The notes under the pieces are model-generated. The model saw only the letters and a program-made list of their open reading frames with translations, searched no databases and had not been told where the DNA came from. From the sequence record MH359124: a stretch of 64,000 nt of DNA. One strand, 5' to 3'. This DNA comes from Escherichia phage SF. The translations under genes and the position numbers were made by a program. Shown here in pieces: positions 238-34,761 of the stretch (position 1 is its first letter; each line of letters starts with the position of its first letter).

Positions 238-954
238 ATGGGAAAACATAACACAATGAAATATATTAAAGCCGCAGATTTTCAATCCGCATTTAAAGCT
301 GTCAATCGTGAAATTTTAGAAAATCCACAGTTCGTTACTGATTCTCGTATTGGACGTTGTAATGAAATTGGGTCTATGACAGTAGTTGTTGATACCCCTT
401 CATCATTCAAAATGACCGACCCACGTATTAATCGCATCTCTTATGAATATGCTGAAGATTTCTGGAAATTTATGATTTCTGGTGGTACTGATGCAGAAGA
501 AGCATTTAAGGCATATCCTAATGTCGCTAAATTTATTTCTAAACCAAAATCAGATGCTTTGCCTACGAACTTCAACACTTTCTATGGTCCTCGCATTGCG
601 GCCCAGTTACCAGCTCTTCTCAAAGAACTTAAAGAGAAACCTAATTCACGAAGAGTTGTGTTCCAAATTCTAGAAAGTTCAGATCAGGCTTTGCTTGATT
701 CAGACGAAACACTTGAATATCCATGTACTGACTCAGTGACTTATTATATTCGTGATGGTAAGCTTTATACCCACTGTCATATGCGTTCTCAGAACTGTGC
801 TGTTGTTATGCAGTTGGATTTTTATCTCCAAGGAAAATTACTTCATTATATCGCTAACGAATGTGGTGTAGAAGTTGGTGATTATACTCATACCATGGTA
901 AGTGCCCATGTGTTTGAACGTGATTTTGATTATGTTAAAGGATTCCTTGACTAA
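238..954 (+). CDS. 42: Thymidylate-synthase-family pyrimidine hydroxymethylase, probable dCMP hydroxymethylase (gene 42 position)
   Basis: 238-aa ORF; TS-fold core motifs (PCT..YYIRD..MRSQN) resemble dCMP hydroxymethylase, but N-terminal half looks diverged from T4 gp42 as remembered; synteny 42-[beta-gt locus]-uvsX; middle promoter upstream. Confidence 0.75.
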   Translation: MGKHNTMKYIKAADFQSAFKAVNREILENPQFVTDSRIGRCNEIGSMTVVVDTPSSFKMTDPRINRISYEYAEDFWKFMISGGTDAEEAFKAYPNVAKFISKPKSDALPTNFNTFYGPRIAAQLPALLKELKEKPNSRRVVFQILESSDQALLDSDETLEYPCTDSVTYYIRDGKLYTHCHMRSQNCAVVMQLDFYLQGKLLHYIANECGVEVGDYTHTMVSAHVFERDFDYVKGFLD

Positions 955-1853
955 TGGCTATTTTCCGCGTACCTATCTTGAGTATGCGGTCTTATGAAAC
1001 TGGACAGTATGCTATCCTTAAGGATGGCAACTTCCAACTTCATTTGCACCGTGCTAATCCAGGTGATGTGATTACATATCCACGTAATGCATCTGATATT
1101 AAAGAATGTGAACGTCTTTTCCCGGAATTTAAGTTTGTTCCATTATGGTATAAAGATAACGCATATAACACTCGTAAATATTTCTGGTCTGAAAATGAAT
1201 TTGTGGTTGATTCATTAATTGATTATTATGATTGTGATTTTCTAATCACAGATATCACTGGATATGACGGCACTTTTGACGTAGAATTCAATTTCAATAT
1301 CACTGCGGACCCTAATAAACCACGTTTTTATATTGACGAATTCTTAAAAACCGACATGTTGTCTGTTAATCGTTCACTTCAAACTACTGTGTTGAATGAA
1401 CGTCAAAAAGAAGTGCTGGTTAACGCAGGTGCAGATGGTAATAAGATTATCGTAACCCGGAAAGTTATACGTCCTTCCATCATGCAGCGTCTTGTAGGTG
1501 ATTTGGCTCCTATTCATCTAGATGGTATTTTTCATCCATTTCGAATTAGTGACCCGTGTTATCGTTTTGAACAAGTGGTTGAATGTGCAATTCAATTAGG
1601 TCAACCGCTTTATATAACCGATCCAAATAATAGCTTCGACAGAAATAAGTATCCTGAAGAAGCGCTGATTCGAATTTTTAATCCAACTAAAACTGAGTAC
1701 TATCAAATTCTTAAAGGACGGCCGAAGATTCAATATTTCGAAAATCCTGAAGAAGTATTCCATCCAGGTCTTGGCGAGTTCATCTACTTTAACGCTTTAA
1801 TTTCTTCACCGTATAATATACCTAAATATGAAGATGTCGTAATCGAGGAATAA
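954..1853 (+). CDS. Hypothetical protein at the beta-glucosyltransferase locus; candidate DNA-modification transferase
   Basis: 299-aa ORF starting at the stop of gene 42 (overlap ATGG); no similarity to T4 beta-gt that I can recognise; function inferred only from position. Confidence 0.5.
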   Translation: MAIFRVPILSMRSYETGQYAILKDGNFQLHLHRANPGDVITYPRNASDIKECERLFPEFKFVPLWYKDNAYNTRKYFWSENEFVVDSLIDYYDCDFLITDITGYDGTFDVEFNFNITADPNKPRFYIDEFLKTDMLSVNRSLQTTVLNERQKEVLVNAGADGNKIIVTRKVIRPSIMQRLVGDLAPIHLDGIFHPFRISDPCYRFEQVVECAIQLGQPLYITDPNNSFDRNKYPEEALIRIFNPTKTEYYQILKGRPKIQYFENPEEVFHPGLGEFIYFNALISSPYNIPKYEDVVIEE

Positions 1854-6984: not shown

Positions 6985-7233
6985 ATGGAATTATTCGTAG
7001 CTAGTTCAGTAGCGGTTTTAATCGCAGGTATTGGTTCAATCATCATTTACATGTTGCCTTGGGTAATCGCACTTATTCGTGGCACAAAAAGCACAACAGC
7101 AATCTTCTTTGTATCTTTACTCTTTAACTGGACGATGATTGGTTGGATTGGAACTTTAATTTGGTCTATCGTTGCCGAAAAGAAATCTGCCCAGCAGCCT
7201 CAACAAGTAATTATTATTCGCGAAAAAGAATAA
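6985..7233 (+). CDS. Small two-TM membrane protein
   Basis: 82-aa ORF, two hydrophobic helices; own promoter. Confidence 0.6.
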   Translation: MELFVASSVAVLIAGIGSIIIYMLPWVIALIRGTKSTTAIFFVSLLFNWTMIGWIGTLIWSIVAEKKSAQQPQQVIIIREKE

Positions 7234-7237
7234 ACTT

Positions 7238-7267
7238 GTTTACATTATAGATGGACTATAGTATAGT
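7238..7267 (+). promoter_or_regulatory. Early promoter (PeSL-like)
   Basis: GTTTAC, 18 nt, TATAGT inside IR GGACTA..TAGTCC; drives sp. Confidence 0.65.
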
Positions 7268-7296
7268 AGTCCTATCAAATTAACTAAGGAGTTAAA

Positions 7297-7590
7297 ATGA
7301 AAAAGTTATCATTGGCAGCAATCTTACTTGCAGTATCATGTGCACCAGCTCCAGTTACGGCAGGTTATGATAAAGACCTCTGTGAGTGGTCAATGACTGC
7401 AAATCAAGAAGATGTTGAACAACAAATCTTCTCTGATATCATGAACATCACTAAACGAGACCGTCCTAATATGGTTAATAAAGTTGTTGAACAACTTAAG
7501 TCTGGCGGTATCATGCAGTACAATTATGTTTTGTATTGTGACCCTAATTTCGATAACAAAGATATCGTAACCGAAATCACAGGTGAATAA
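7297..7590 (+). CDS. sp: Spackle periplasmic protein (superinfection exclusion / lysozyme inhibitor)
   Basis: 97-aa ORF; signal peptide; GYDKDLCEWSMTA...SGG.MQYNYVLYCD matches T4 Sp. Confidence 0.8.
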   Translation: MKKLSLAAILLAVSCAPAPVTAGYDKDLCEWSMTANQEDVEQQIFSDIMNITKRDRPNMVNKVVEQLKSGGIMQYNYVLYCDPNFDNKDIVTEITGE

Positions 7591-8967: not shown

Positions 8968-9990
8968 ATGGCTGAATGGATAGATAATGAATTTGCTTAT
9001 CGTGCGTTTTCTCACCTACCTCGTTTTAGACAAATCAATAATTCAAGCACATTTAAATTAACATTTCGTTGTCCAGTTTGTGGCGACTCCCAGACCGATG
9101 CAATGAAAGCTCGCGGATGGTATTATGGCGGTACTCCTGGTAATGTACATTGTTATAATTGTCAATACCACAATACAATTTCCGGATACTTAAAAGAGTA
9201 TGATGAAGAGCTTTATCGCGAATACCTAATGGAAGTTCGTAAAGAAAAAGCTAGAATGGAACCAAAGATTGAAAAGGTTCCTGAACATAAACCAGAACCG
9301 GAGAAAAAGACTATAAATTCTTTGCCGTCTTGTTCTCGTCTGGACAAGCTGCCTGAAGAGCATCCTATTGTGAAATATGTTAAGTCTCGATGCATTCCTA
9401 AAGAATCATGGAACAGATTATGGTTCACATTAGAATGGCCTAAATTGGTCAACAAGATTCAACCTGGTACGTATAAGAAAGAGATTCCCGAACCACGTTT
9501 AGTGATTCCTATTTTTAATAAAGACGGGAAGGCTGAGTCATTCCAAGGACGTGCACTTCGTAAAGATGCTCCTCAGAAATATATCACTATTAAAGCGTTC
9601 GAGTCTGCAACAAAAATTTATGGTGTTGAACGTGTTAAGGAAGGAGACGTCTGGGTAATGGAAGGCCCTATTGATAGTTTATTCATACCCAATGCAATCG
9701 CTATTACAGGCGGCTCAATAGATTTAGATGTGGTACCATTTAAAGAACGTCGGGTATGGGTAATGGATAATGAACCTAGGCATCCAGATACTATAGCTCG
9801 CATGAAGCGATTAGTTGATGCAGGCGAACGTGTTATGTTCTGGGACCGAGCTCCATGGAGATCAAAGGATGTGAACGATATGGTAATGAAAGAAAATGCA
9901 ACACCACAAGAAATTTTAGAATATATGAAACAGAATATTTCAAGTGGGTTGCATGCTAAAATGAGATTATCTCGTTATTCTAAGATTTAA
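8968..9990 (+). CDS. 61: gp61 DNA primase
   Basis: 340-aa ORF; zinc-ribbon CPVCGDS..CYNC and Toprim region match T4 gp61. Confidence 0.95.
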   Translation: MAEWIDNEFAYRAFSHLPRFRQINNSSTFKLTFRCPVCGDSQTDAMKARGWYYGGTPGNVHCYNCQYHNTISGYLKEYDEELYREYLMEVRKEKARMEPKIEKVPEHKPEPEKKTINSLPSCSRLDKLPEEHPIVKYVKSRCIPKESWNRLWFTLEWPKLVNKIQPGTYKKEIPEPRLVIPIFNKDGKAESFQGRALRKDAPQKYITIKAFESATKIYGVERVKEGDVWVMEGPIDSLFIPNAIAITGGSIDLDVVPFKERRVWVMDNEPRHPDTIARMKRLVDAGERVMFWDRAPWRSKDVNDMVMKENATPQEILEYMKQNISSGLHAKMRLSRYSKI

Positions 9991-10184
9991 ACAAGCCCTA
10001 TAATAGCAAATGCCAAATCAACTACGGTATCCAATGGAACAGAAGGAACCATAACACCATGGGCAACTAACAATGGCGCAATCCCGAAGTTCCATGAAAT
10101 AATGCCACCTACAACTATTGCAGCGATAGCAGTTTTCTTTTTATTGCCTTTAATAGCGTTGATTAACGATGGAAGTTTAAACAT
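9987..10184 (-). CDS. Small hydrophobic membrane protein encoded antisense to the early gene block
   Basis: 65-aa ORF on - strand filling the 61-56 intergenic gap; strong SD (TAAGGAG) 7 nt upstream of ATG; near-consensus AATAAATA late-promoter-like box upstream. Confidence 0.45.
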   Translation of the reverse strand: MFKLPSLINAIKGNKKKTAIAAIVVGGIISWNFGIAPLLVAHGVMVPSVPLDTVVDLAFAIIGLV

Positions 10185-10212
10185 AATATCTCCTTAGTTA
10201 CCTATTATTTAT

Positions 10213-10239
10213 TACGCTTTATAAAATTAATGTTAGAAT
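10213..10239 (+). promoter_or_regulatory. Middle promoter candidate for gene 56
   Basis: TACGCTTTA box, 12-nt spacer, -10 TAGAAT. Confidence 0.4.
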
Positions 10240-10273
10240 TAACTTCTCTTATACTGAATTGAAAGGAAAAATA

Positions 10274-10795
10274 ATGGCGCACTTTAACGAATGTTCACAA
10301 CTTATTTCTGGTGTTGATAAAGCAGAAGAAGCTTATTTTAATGCTCTGATTCATGAAGATAAAGACCCATTGCAGGTAATGCTTGATATGCAGAAATCTT
10401 TACAGGTTCGTCTGGCAAATGACAAGCCTGAACATAACAAACATCCTGATGAATTGGCCACTGCTGGCGATGTTGTTGATTGGCTGCGTAATCAGAAAGA
10501 TTATATCGATGATGAATTCCGTGAACTGCTGACTTCACTTGGTGGTATGAGCAATGGTGAAAAAGCCGCTAGCTCTGTATGGAAGCCGTGGAAAGCACAA
10601 CATGCTGAATATCGAAATCGACGTATCGATGAACTGTCTCCTGAAGACCAGCTTGAAATTAAATTCGAGATGATTGATATCCTCCACTTTGTTCTGAATA
10701 TGTTCCAAGGCCTAGGTCTTTCCGCTGAAGAAATCTTTAAACTTTACTACTTGAAAAACCAACACAACTTTGAACGCCAGGATAATGGTTACTGA
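10274..10795 (+). CDS. 56: gp56 dCTPase/dUTPase (MazG-like)
   Basis: ORF track 10259..10795 (TTG); ATG 10274 gives MAHFNEC... matching the T4 gp56 N-terminus. Confidence 0.9.
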   Translation: MAHFNECSQLISGVDKAEEAYFNALIHEDKDPLQVMLDMQKSLQVRLANDKPEHNKHPDELATAGDVVDWLRNQKDYIDDEFRELLTSLGGMSNGEKAASSVWKPWKAQHAEYRNRRIDELSPEDQLEIKFEMIDILHFVLNMFQGLGLSAEEIFKLYYLKNQHNFERQDNGY

Positions 10796-10802
10796 TTAGG
10801 GT

Positions 10803-10810
10803 TATAAATA
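10803..10810 (+). promoter_or_regulatory. Late promoter (TATAAATA) for soc
   Basis: Exact TATAAATA 31 nt upstream of the soc ATG. Confidence 0.7.
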
Positions 10811-10841
10811 CACCTGTAATTAAACAACAAAGGAGTTAATT

Positions 10842-11078
10842 ATGGGTGGTTATGTAAACATCAAAACCTTTACACGTCCGGCTGGTGAAGGCAAAGAAGT
10901 TAAAGGTATGGAAGTTTCTGTACCGTTTGAGATTTATTCAAACGAACATCGGATTGCAGATTCTCATTACCAAATCTTTCCATCAGAAAAGGCAGCATAT
11001 TCTACTGTAGTTTCTGATGCAGCTGATTGGAAAACTAAGAATGCTGCAATGTTTACCCCTACACCAGTAAGCGGTTAA
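10842..11078 (+). CDS. soc: Soc small outer capsid protein
   Basis: 78-aa ORF; GYVNIKTF...HYQ.FPSEKAAYSTV matches T4 Soc; TATAAATA late promoter 31 nt upstream; terminator downstream. Confidence 0.85.
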   Translation: MGGYVNIKTFTRPAGEGKEVKGMEVSVPFEIYSNEHRIADSHYQIFPSEKAAYSTVVSDAADWKTKNAAMFTPTPVSG

Positions 11079-20578: not shown

Positions 20579-22396
20579 ATGATTAAAAATGAAATTAAGG
20601 TATTGTCAGACGTAGAACATATTAAGAAACGTAGTGGCATGTATATTGGTTCTTCGGCCAAAGAAGCCCATGAGCGTTTTTTGTTTGGTAAATATCAACA
20701 AGTTGAATATGTTCCTGGTCTGGTTAAATTAATCGATGAGATTATTGACAACTCGGTTGATGAAGCTATTCGTACATCATTTAAGTTTGCAAATAAAATT
20801 GATGTGCAAATTAAAAATAATCAAGTTTCGGTGGAAGATAACGGACGTGGTATTCCTCAAGGTTTAGTTACTGACCAAACAGGTGAACAAATTCCTGGGC
20901 CTGTAGCAGCCTGGACTATTCCAAAGGCTGGCGGTAACTTTGGTGATGACTCTGAACGTAAGACCGGTGGTATGAACGGCGTCGGGAGTAGTTTAACTAA
21001 TATCTTCTCTACGTTGTTTACAGGCATCACGTCAGATGGCGAAAATGAAATCACTGTTAACTGTTCAAACGGAATGGAAAACAAATCATGGTCTTCTAAG
21101 AAATCTAAAGGTAAAGGCACTAAAGTAATCTTCACTCCTGATTTCTCTTCATTTGAAGAGCATAATTTATCTCAAATTTATTTAGATATTACTTTAGACC
21201 GACTTCAAACATTGGCAGTCGTTTATCCTGATATCAAGTTCACATTTAATGGTAAAAAGGTTGATGGTAATTTTAAACGATTTGCTAAACAATTTGGCGA
21301 AGATAACATCATTCAAGAAAATGATAAAGTCTCTATAGCATTCACAACATCACCAGATGGCTTCCGTCATTTAACTTATGTGAATAACATCCATACTAAA
21401 AATGGCGGTCATCACGTTGAATGTGTAATGGATGATATCTGCGAACATCTTTTGCCTGGTATTAAAAAGAAATATAAGGGTATTGAAGTCACTAAAGCTC
21501 GTGTTAAAGAATGTCTCACAATGTTGATGTTTATTAGAGACATGAGCAACATGCGTTTTGATTCTCAGACTAAAGAACGTTTAACGTCAACGTATGGCGA
21601 TATTCGTAATCATATCCAATTAGATACTAAGAAAATTGCTCAGGCACTTCTTAAAAACGAAGCCTTGATTATGCCTATTGTTGAAGCAGCATTAGCTCGT
21701 AAATTGGCAGCAGAAAAAGCTGCAGAAACTAAAGCAGCTAAAAAGGCAACTAAAGCTAAGGTTCATAAGCATATTAAAGCTAACCAATGTGGTAAAGATG
21801 CAGATACGACATTGTTTTTAACAGAAGGTGATTCTGCAATTGGTTATCTCATTGATGTTCGTGACCGTGAACTACACGGCGGATTTCCATTACGTGGTAA
21901 GGTGATGAATAGCTGGGGTATGTCATATGCTGATATGATGAAGAACAAAGAGCTCTTTGATATCTGTGCTATCACAGGTCTTATTCTTGGTGAAAAGGCA
22001 GAGAATACGAACTATCGTAATATTGCAATTATGACCGATGCCGATCATGACGGTCTTGGAAGTATTTATCCGGCTTTGCTTGCTTTCTTTAGTAATTGGC
22101 CTGAATTGTTTGAACAAGGACGTATTCGCTTTGTTAAAACGCCTGTAATTATTGCACAAATTGGCAAAACTCAAAAATGGTTTTATACTGTAACTGAGTA
22201 TGAAGAAGCTAAAGATACACTGCCTAAGCATAGTATTCGATACATCAAAGGATTGGGCTCCCTTGAAAAGTCAGAATATCGTGAAATGATTCAGAACCCT
22301 GTGTACGACGTAGTTAAACTTCCTGAAAATTGGAAAGAACTCTTTGAAATGTTGTTGGGTGATGATTCAGAACTTCGTAAAGAATGGATGTCCTAA
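20579..22396 (+). CDS. 39: DNA topoisomerase II large subunit, fused gp39+gp60 equivalent (GyrB-like)
   Basis: 605-aa ORF; GHKL ATPase N-terminus and Toprim C-terminus in one reading frame (T4 splits this into 39 and 60). Confidence 0.9.
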   Translation: MIKNEIKVLSDVEHIKKRSGMYIGSSAKEAHERFLFGKYQQVEYVPGLVKLIDEIIDNSVDEAIRTSFKFANKIDVQIKNNQVSVEDNGRGIPQGLVTDQTGEQIPGPVAAWTIPKAGGNFGDDSERKTGGMNGVGSSLTNIFSTLFTGITSDGENEITVNCSNGMENKSWSSKKSKGKGTKVIFTPDFSSFEEHNLSQIYLDITLDRLQTLAVVYPDIKFTFNGKKVDGNFKRFAKQFGEDNIIQENDKVSIAFTTSPDGFRHLTYVNNIHTKNGGHHVECVMDDICEHLLPGIKKKYKGIEVTKARVKECLTMLMFIRDMSNMRFDSQTKERLTSTYGDIRNHIQLDTKKIAQALLKNEALIMPIVEAALARKLAAEKAAETKAAKKATKAKVHKHIKANQCGKDADTTLFLTEGDSAIGYLIDVRDRELHGGFPLRGKVMNSWGMSYADMMKNKELFDICAITGLILGEKAENTNYRNIAIMTDADHDGLGSIYPALLAFFSNWPELFEQGRIRFVKTPVIIAQIGKTQKWFYTVTEYEEAKDTLPKHSIRYIKGLGSLEKSEYREMIQNPVYDVVKLPENWKELFEMLLGDDSELRKEWMS

Positions 22397-33798: not shown

Positions 33799-34071
33799 AT
33801 GAATAAAGATATTGAAATTGTACGTGAAATTATTACTGTTGCTTCTATTTTGATTAAATTCTCGAGGGAAGATATTGTTGAAGACCGAGCAAATTTCATC
33901 GGATTCTTGAATGAGATTGGAATTAAAAAAGATGGTCGGCAGCTAAATCAGAATTCGTTCAGAAAACTAATTACAAATTTAACTGCCGAAGAAAAGAAAA
34001 CACTGATTAGTGAATTCAATGAAGGTTTTGAAAATATTTATCGCCATTTGACGATGTATTCTAACAACTAA
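33799..34071 (+). CDS. asiA: AsiA anti-sigma70 factor
   Basis: 90-aa ORF; VREIITVASILIKFSREDIVE.RANFI.FLNEIG matches T4 AsiA. Confidence 0.9.
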   Translation: MNKDIEIVREIITVASILIKFSREDIVEDRANFIGFLNEIGIKKDGRQLNQNSFRKLITNLTAEEKKTLISEFNEGFENIYRHLTMYSNN

Positions 34072-34731
34072 TTATTTAGCCCGCCCTAATATCCTTGCTG
34101 CTTGGTTGCATATTGCAGCCAAGCGTTCTTCATTTAACACATCCGACCCCTTATACCAATACATAGAAACAGTTCCCGCATATATGTTATCCAAATTGAA
34201 GTAAGGACAACTATACATATACGCCAGTTCTGGAGTTTTTGATTTGGTGGGTAAGAAAGCAAAATCTGTTTTAGAAGTAAAGTGAAGTCCACTTAAATGG
34301 ACCGAATATTCTGCTGTCGTTTTATCAACAGGAAATCCTCCCATAGATTTTTCAGTTACTGTGCTAGGTAACTTACCTTCATACGCAATAAGGTCGACGA
34401 AATAATTTAGATTTTTAGGTCTGAAAGAATACACCGAACTAAAATCCGCCCTTGATGTGACGTGGACTATTTGTAGTTGTTCTAAAGCCGCAGATTCAAA
34501 TCGTGTATTTCTTTCTTTTTGAATTACTTCTGTGTAAGTATCATATTTCGACCTCACGTAATAATCCATAAAAATATTCCCTTTGTACCATATTAGTGCC
34601 ATTAGGAACAAAAGAACTACAACAGCAACTCTGGAAATAAGAATATTTCCAGAGGCGTTATCTTTGAAAATGCGGTCTAGCAACCCAAATAAAATATCAC
34701 TAGGCGAAAATGATACTTTTGGTGCTGCCAT
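34072..34731 (-). CDS. t: Holin T
   Basis: 219-aa ORF; MAAPKVSFSPSDILFG..SRVAVV..L near-identical to the T4 holin; convergent with asiA. Confidence 0.9.
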   Translation of the reverse strand: MAAPKVSFSPSDILFGLLDRIFKDNASGNILISRVAVVVLLFLMALIWYKGNIFMDYYVRSKYDTYTEVIQKERNTRFESAALEQLQIVHVTSRADFSSVYSFRPKNLNYFVDLIAYEGKLPSTVTEKSMGGFPVDKTTAEYSVHLSGLHFTSKTDFAFLPTKSKTPELAYMYSCPYFNLDNIYAGTVSMYWYKGSDVLNEERLAAICNQAARILGRAK

Positions 34732-34761
34732 AGACCCTCCTTTTAAGGATATTTATTCAAA

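Follow-up and report, generated by a model that had tools for sequence, protein, structure and literature searches.

A conserved minus-strand gene between genes 61 and 56 of T4-like phages, probably encoding a late membrane microprotein

The locus and its coding status

We analysed a 64,000-nucleotide (nt) stretch of the Escherichia phage SF genome (MH359124), hereafter called the window, with a focus on a minus-strand open reading frame (ORF) of 65 codons located between gene 61, which encodes the primase, and gene 56, which encodes the dCTPase. The window comes from an RB69/HX01-like Mosigvirus, and its segment from 9000 to 11000 is 97–98% identical to Mosigvirus genomes, e.g. those of NHEP36, HX01 and AV112. 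The plus strand carries a T4-type block of early and middle genes (dmd, imm, sp, three ORFs, gene 61, gene 56, soc, mrh, modA/B and onward), and within this otherwise early and middle transcription block the ORF is convergent to the primase gene. In NHEP36, a 98%-identical phage with an independent annotation, the ORF is the sole minus-strand coding sequence (CDS) among approximately 63 in the early block, which bears out the statement of an earlier note, made from the letters of the window alone, that it is the only convincing minus-strand ORF of the early region. The same note held that the ORF exactly fills the gap between genes 61 and 56. Its position and the gap size of 283 nt were correct, but the wording was loose, since the ORF occupies 194 nt of the gap, the remaining 89 nt carry promoter sequences, and the ORF also overlaps the stop codon of gene 61 by 4 nt. 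The TTTAAA stop/stop junction was also found in T4, RB14, CkP1, Melville and the metagenome locus L009.

The minus-strand ORF is a genuine conserved protein-coding gene. Conservation in related phages, which the earlier note had proposed as a check, was found by tblastn in 691 phage records, 684 of which cover at least 80% of the protein, together with purifying selection on the encoded sequence. In the comparison with ESCO47 (74% nucleotide identity), the ratio of non-synonymous to synonymous substitution rates (dN/dS, Nei–Gojobori method) was 0.12 at a dS of 1.3, and the differences at codon positions 1, 2 and 3 numbered 16, 3 and 32, respectively. Mosigvirus comparisons gave dN/dS values of 0.10–0.27, with dS reaching saturation. 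When the six frames were compared, the frame of the ORF showed the lowest ratio of non-synonymous to synonymous differences per site (pN/pS) and zero stops.

The gene is already catalogued and is not novel as a feature, because it is annotated as PHROG 2024 / RB69ORF029w. The protein matched the PHROG 2024 profile, a family without an assigned function, with an E-value of 2.6e-27, residues 1–65 aligning on 65 of 65 profile positions, and all 13 diverse members that were searched, subfamily B (described below) included, matched phrog_2024 as well. Existing names are RB69ORF029w, RB32ORF030w (RB14ORF31; 'similar to RB69ORF029w'), VR7ORF033w and HX01 D299_gp163, all given to hypothetical proteins, and an annotation of this kind is present in most Mosigvirus records and in hundreds of records overall. 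The window ORF is an ortholog of the PHROG 2024 members, from which it does not differ in size, position between genes 61 and 56, strand, late box or Shine–Dalgarno (SD) sequence. The coordinates of these and other features are collected in Table 1.

Table 1. Features of the locus and of related loci (positions refer to the window unless another record or locus is named)
Feature	Position	Strand	Remarks
Gene 61 (primase)	8968..9990	+	
Gene 56 (dCTPase)	10274..10795	+	
Minus-strand ORF (CDS)	9987..10184	−	65 aa, ATG start, TAA stop; PHROG 2024, RB69ORF029w / RB32ORF030w family, subfamily A
TTAA	9987..9990		Stop codons of gene 61 (+) and the ORF (−) share 4 nt
SD sequence AAGGAG	10190..10195	−	5 nt before ATG; read directly
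Late-promoter-like box AATAAATA	10206..10213	−	A(−13) variant of TATAAATA, 7/8 matches; 29 to 22 nt before ATG
Predicted transmembrane helix, codons 15–41	10062..10142	−	Conserved W31-N32-F33, P37, A41; AlphaFold2, hydropathy
Basic cluster KGNKKK, codons 12–17	10134..10151	−	K12 and K16 invariant in alignment A1
Predicted short hydrophobic C-terminal helix, codons 51–62	9999..10034	−	After Pro-rich turn (G43, P47, D/E52 conserved); AlphaFold2
Putative MotA-dependent middle promoter of gene 56	10212..10239	+	TTACGCTTTA (9/10 MotA-box matches), 12 nt, TAGAAT; proposed from sequence only
AATAAATA box ahead of holin gene t (34072..34731, −)	34750–34757	−	26 nt before ATG; variant and distance similar to those of the ORF
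T4 ortholog	NC_000866 17738..17938 (= locus L003 4239–4439)	+	Intact, 66 aa, 55% identical; in the 309-nt dam–61 gap, unannotated in RefSeq
Subfamily B, ESCO47	L007 2305–2508		
Subfamily B, VR7	L014 1299 onward		
Subfamily B, JS98	L015 1301–1501		
Subfamily B, PhiKpNIH-6	L016 1301–1501		
Decayed subfamily B remnant, Yersinia phage P8	L005 2715–2816		Downstream of intact A
Decayed subfamily B remnant, EAWsc9	L017 about 900–1016		Downstream of intact A

Some annotations of the neighbourhood deserve mention. The HX01 RefSeq record lists a 25-aa minus-strand ORF, D299_gp164 (window 10205–10282, −), which shares sequence with the promoter region and with the beginning of gene 56; NHEP36 has no such annotation, and this short ORF is probably spurious. 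According to the HX01 and NHEP36 annotations, imm (superinfection immunity) directly adjoins sp (spackle) upstream of gene 61 (window 6985–7590, +). In T4, imm lies elsewhere, between genes 42 and 43.

Distribution and paralogs of the family

A copy on the strand opposite to genes 61 and 56, and located between them, was present in Mosigvirus, Tequatrovirus, Gaprivervirus, Karamvirus, Jiaodavirus, Gelderlandvirus, Dhakavirus and Marfavirus, as well as in a metagenomic T4-like contig, with distant members at this same position in Gaprivervirus, Karamvirus (CkP1), Jiaodavirus (KPV15), Gelderlandvirus (Melville) and the metagenomic contig. Every genus examined has kept at least one paralog between the two genes on the late strand. 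A profile search of 1.84 billion representative proteins returned nine matches, all of them within the same small family. Gaprivervirus variants that appeared truncated to residues 1–56 were rejected as an artefact of BLAST trimming, the ORF being intact there at 65 aa.

Among the points that would refute its reading, the earlier note listed that the homologous gap of T4 is a noncoding origin region. This proved incorrect, as the dam–61 gap of T4 holds an intact ortholog (Table 1), and the annotated position of oriA, 16763, is approximately 1 kb away, within the start of gene 56. The family is also missing from the annotation of JS98.

Two paralogous subfamilies, A and B, were distinguished, which sometimes occur in tandem, and the window ORF belongs to A. 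Subfamily B has the pattern MGTxFYQIWKL...WNL...LPQV..H..SII, aligns to subfamily A in hhalign with 94% probability (E 1e-7), and is represented in 112 phage records. Dhakavirus JS98 and Marfavirus PhiKpNIH-6 have no other copy; B lies upstream of A in ESCO47 (B–A) and downstream of A in VR7 (A–B), and it is unannotated in JS98 and VR7. In P8, the subfamily B fragment carries the mistaken annotation 'DNA packaging ATPase' and adjoins a homing-endonuclease gene.

Signals for late expression

Both the strong SD sequence and the near-consensus late-promoter box that the earlier note had reported ahead of the ORF were confirmed (Table 1), and both are conserved across clades. An AGGAG(G) SD sequence occupies the equivalent site in every clade examined, and a late box, NATAAATA or ATTAAATA, is located 20–31 nt upstream of the first ATG in every clade. 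The box reads AATAAATA in Mosigvirus, RB14 and JS98; GATAAATA in T4, where it lies 29 nt upstream of the ortholog and is followed by the SD sequence AAAGGAGG; CATAAATA in P8, CJ20, VR7, KPV15, L009 and ESCO47; ATTAAATA in CkP1 and Melville; and the perfect TATAAATA in PhiKpNIH-6. In the B–A pair of ESCO47, box and SD sequence stand only ahead of B, the first gene, which is the behaviour expected of a promoter; the start codon of A overlaps the stop codon of B, and the subfamily A gene is translationally coupled to B. If the box of the window is placed at −13 to −6, by the convention for T4-type late genes (dependent on gp55, gp33 and gp45), transcription would start near 10200 and produce a leader of approximately 16 nt.

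Late octamers are avoided in the window, where eight VATAAATA sequences were counted against 21.4 expected (100 of 100 shuffles had at least eight) and five perfect TATAAATA sequences against 7.7 expected. All five perfect boxes precede the start of an ORF on the same strand, three of them at 32–42 nt (soc and two tail-fibre genes included) and two at about 90–125 nt. Two variant boxes GATAAATA, at 22063–22070 (−) and 34035–34042 (−), are directed antisense into early genes. An A at −13 is the commonest variant among T4 late promoters, occurring at 9 of 50 listed sites (PMC2988020), and T(−13) shows little conservation among RB69-type phages (PMC1524935). A sigma-70 promoter scan detected none on the strand of the ORF upstream of it, its sole promoter-like match being on the plus strand at 10159–10187, inside the ORF. 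Late, gp55-dependent transcription of the gene is thus probable in our view and well supported by the motifs.

On the opposite strand, TTACGCTTTA-N12-TAGAAT is probably the promoter of gene 56 and the counterpart of that of the T4 oriA primer transcript. This putative middle promoter is arranged back to back with the minus-strand late box, the two overlapping by 2 nt, and it fits the MotA consensus (a/t)(a/t)(a/t)TGCTTtA, for which a distance of 12 ± 1 bp to the −10 element is given (PMC2988021). The equivalent site of RB14 carries a perfect TATTGCTTTA-N11-TATAAT, with the late box within the spacer.

The predicted product and its possible roles

AlphaFold2, supplied with an alignment of 20 sequences, modelled the protein with a mean predicted local distance difference test (pLDDT) score of 85, with helices at residues 3–11, 15–41 and 51–62 and a loop at 42–50. 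The best 19-residue Kyte–Doolittle window had a mean of 1.93. The model and the hydropathy profile indicate a membrane protein with one transmembrane (TM) helix and a short hydrophobic helix. Of the two TM helices that had been predicted in the earlier note, the one at 15–41 is clear, but the C-terminal one at 51–62 is not a canonical second TM helix, because it is only 12 residues long and carries D52 and D56. Lysine and arginine residues number five in the N-terminal flank of the TM helix and zero in the C-terminal flank, suggesting, by the positive-inside rule, that the N-terminus is inside and the C-terminus outside.

The residues common to both subfamilies are K12/K16, W31-N32-F/Y/L33, P37, A41, G43, P47 and D/E52, and the cross-subfamily motif is W-N-[FYL]-x3-P-x-A-x2-[HYKQ]-[GA]-x3-P-x-[VI]-x-[LIM]-[DEQ]. 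With the exception of the two lysines, these residues cluster at the predicted periplasmic end of the TM helix and in the turn that follows, suggesting a specific protein–protein contact there; the protein has no room for an enzymatic domain. The small bitopic regulators MgrB and SafA, which act on PhoQ, and AcrZ are about 50–65 aa long, have one TM helix with the N-terminus inside, and bind a larger membrane protein. The product of the ORF resembles them in having conserved residues in a short periplasmic or interfacial segment. This is an analogy only, as there is no homology, and the protein differs from them in being phage-encoded and probably late.

The explanation that we favour, and consider likely as a whole, is that of a conserved gene with late gp55-dependent expression, whose product is an inner-membrane microprotein making a contact at the periplasmic face. 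The gene would be transcribed from the AATAAATA box late in infection and translated from the strong SD sequence on the short leader. The 65-residue product would keep its short amphipathic N-terminus and the basic cluster in the cytoplasm, cross the membrane once, and continue through the Pro-rich juxtamembrane turn into the short hydrophobic helix on the periplasmic side, where it would most likely act by binding itself or another membrane protein. As for the process served, our best guess, a tentative one which we hold to be less probable than the remainder of the account, is a late event at the envelope, for instance lysis timing or lysis inhibition.

Several points weigh against this account. 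A search of the literature for the names of the ORF, for T4 antisense and late transcripts near gene 61, and for small-protein ribosome profiling, omics and essentiality screens returned nothing on this ORF, including transcript, ribosome-profiling or proteomic data, in any phage. The box hardly ever begins with the consensus T, which may make the promoter a weak one. No plus-strand terminator was found between genes 61 and 56, so that read-through from early and middle transcription would yield RNA antisense to the mRNA of the ORF. Copies that are truncated or decayed occur naturally (a48; subfamily B of P8 and of EAWsc9), and the gene is probably not essential in the laboratory. Both the topology and the absence of cleavage are inferred from the sequence. 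Finally, no homology or fold match to a characterized protein was obtained, so the process served is a guess.

The absence of cleavage is the point at which a first alternative departs from the favoured microprotein, proposing that residues 1–43 are a long cleavable signal with a signal-peptidase site at A41-x-G43 and P37 upstream of it, and that a hydrophobic peptide of 22 residues is released at the periplasmic face. A41 and G43 are invariant or nearly so, G or A occupies −1 in both subfamilies, and the n-region is basic; moreover, T4 RI, for a long time regarded as a signal anchor, has since been reported to undergo cleavage. However, the hydrophobic core of about 23–27 residues was modelled as one continuous helix, and a long continuous core is typical of an uncleaved anchor, not of a signal peptide, whose short h-region (about 7–15 aa) is followed by small residues at −3 and −1. 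In addition, F occupies −3 in member P0076. Given the length and continuity of the hydrophobic helix, we regard the release of such a peptide as improbable.

The searches for function were as follows. The window protein had no match in Pfam or NCBIfam at E-values up to 10, and the 13 members gave only chance-level matches in these databases (Syndecan, Ldr, GTA_holin_3TM; E at least 0.08). With respect to type I toxins of the Ldr/Hok kind, the only match was to Ldr_toxin, in one of the 13 members, and was not significant (E 0.1). PADLOC gave no defence match, a profile search of the PDB gave only chance matches to TM segments (E at least 0.8), and Foldseek found nothing in the PDB and only family members in BFVD, one of which is named 'Holin'.

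This name recurs among the homologs from OE5505 (UniRef), EAWsc9 and KP1079, which are labelled 'holin' or 'holin family protein'. The small size, membrane embedding and probable late expression of the protein would also suit a holin or pinholin that permeabilizes the inner membrane to time lysis, and the tandem paralogs are reminiscent of holin/antiholin pairs. The labels nevertheless appear to be automatic, and Pfam, NCBIfam and PHROGs yielded no significant match to a holin family, the best being phrog_11161 in one of the 13 members (E 0.012). The protein lacks the charged hydrophilic C-terminal tail that is usual in holins, since it ends in the hydrophobic ...DLAFAIIGLV, neither K nor R follows the TM helix, and its charge lies at the N-terminus. 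The window already has a T-type holin gene (Table 1), and a holin is, on all these counts, a doubtful candidate. Holin T, the antiholins RI and RIII and the spanins PseT.3/PseT.2 of T4 are membrane-associated and control lysis at the envelope. Gene t of the window shares the AATAAATA box with the ORF, but the ORF protein has no sequence or fold similarity to these lysis-control proteins, and while holin T has 219 aa and a large periplasmic domain, the ORF protein extends only about 22 residues beyond the membrane.

The earlier note had suggested a late-expressed membrane protein for lysis timing or superinfection exclusion. The first part stands, in that a late-strand gene with a conserved late-like box and SD sequence encodes a membrane protein; the proposed roles found no direct support, since there was no match to a holin, Imm or Sp and the window already has t, imm and sp, and they are guesses. 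An early-acting superinfection exclusion protein like Imm or Sp would agree with a small envelope protein encoded within a few kb of imm and sp. Unlike these early-strand genes, the ORF lies on the strand that carries none of the early and middle genes, and it has late signals, with a late box and no sigma-70 or MotA-type promoter; its sequence is unrelated to Imm and Sp, without a PHROG cross-match, and both of these genes are present separately. Exclusion of the Imm/Sp type is hence very unlikely.

Equally remote, in our judgement, is the reading in which the real function lies at the RNA level, as a late antisense RNA against the primase message and the early messages upstream of it, with the ORF being incidental. 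The terminator scan found none on the minus strand for approximately 3 kb past the ORF, so a late transcript would enter gene 61 in the antisense direction; in T4, some sites are known to have both strands transcribed, though not at the same time (PMC2988020), and the stop/stop overlap with gene 61 is widely conserved. With no terminator-like site found in these stretches of the two strands, mutual antisense transcription is possible. However, the protein sequence is under strong purifying selection that is peculiar to the sense frame, the start codon, SD sequence and length are conserved, and paralogs have been duplicated and retained. The ORF is separated from gene 61 by the homing-endonuclease gene in P8 and by an 18-nt spacer in KPV15, so what has been conserved is not the antisense pairing with gene 61. 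In KPV15, where the ORF and the primase gene converge, the spacer between their stop codons (L011 about 1693–1710) is filled by a GGGGC-TTTG-GCCCC hairpin, which was rejected as a canonical terminator: it has no run of T residues and was not called by the scan. Rfam returned only a meaningless match (E 0.48) for the region 9700–10500. An antisense side effect may exist alongside the protein.

Finally, the reading of the ORF as no gene at all, either an ORF that arose by chance in an AT-rich spacer (1.4–2.6% of random 287-nt sequences of the same composition contain one that runs from ATG to stop over at least 65 aa, and length alone is weak evidence where conservation is decisive) or the shadow of a plus-strand frame that stays open for 69 codons beyond the TAA of gene 61 (window 9991–10197, +; also in ESCO47) with a pN/pS of 0.34, is effectively refuted by the distribution over 691 records, the dN/dS values and the frame comparison, as the ORF has been kept across genera despite saturated synonymous sites, while the plus frame has a stop in T4 and P8, lacks a start codon and SD sequence, and owes its low pN/pS to the wobble position that it shares with the minus-strand ORF.

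With regard to the conserved late microprotein, we put forward, as a speculative and rather unlikely extension, that PHROG 2024 is an unrecognized late envelope component of the T-even phages, for example a partner that tunes holin T and antiholin RI, or a counter to a membrane-acting host defence. If this were true, the family would have been overlooked for decades because the T4 reference annotation omits it, and the retention of at least one paralog in each enterobacterial T4-like genus examined would reflect a required two-state or oligomeric membrane function. The gene is among very few late-strand genes within the early block and is catalogued yet uncharacterized, and T4 omics and knock-down screens that were built on the RefSeq annotation, from which it is missing, cannot have tested it. 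Its interest, which is modest, lies in this omission and in its retention across genera as a late-strand gene in an early region. With the T4 ortholog annotated, a conserved membrane protein that is probably late would become open to testing in the best-studied phage. Should the gene affect lysis timing, lysis inhibition or resistance to membrane-acting defences, a gap in a classic system would be filled; otherwise, it would be one more small accessory gene.

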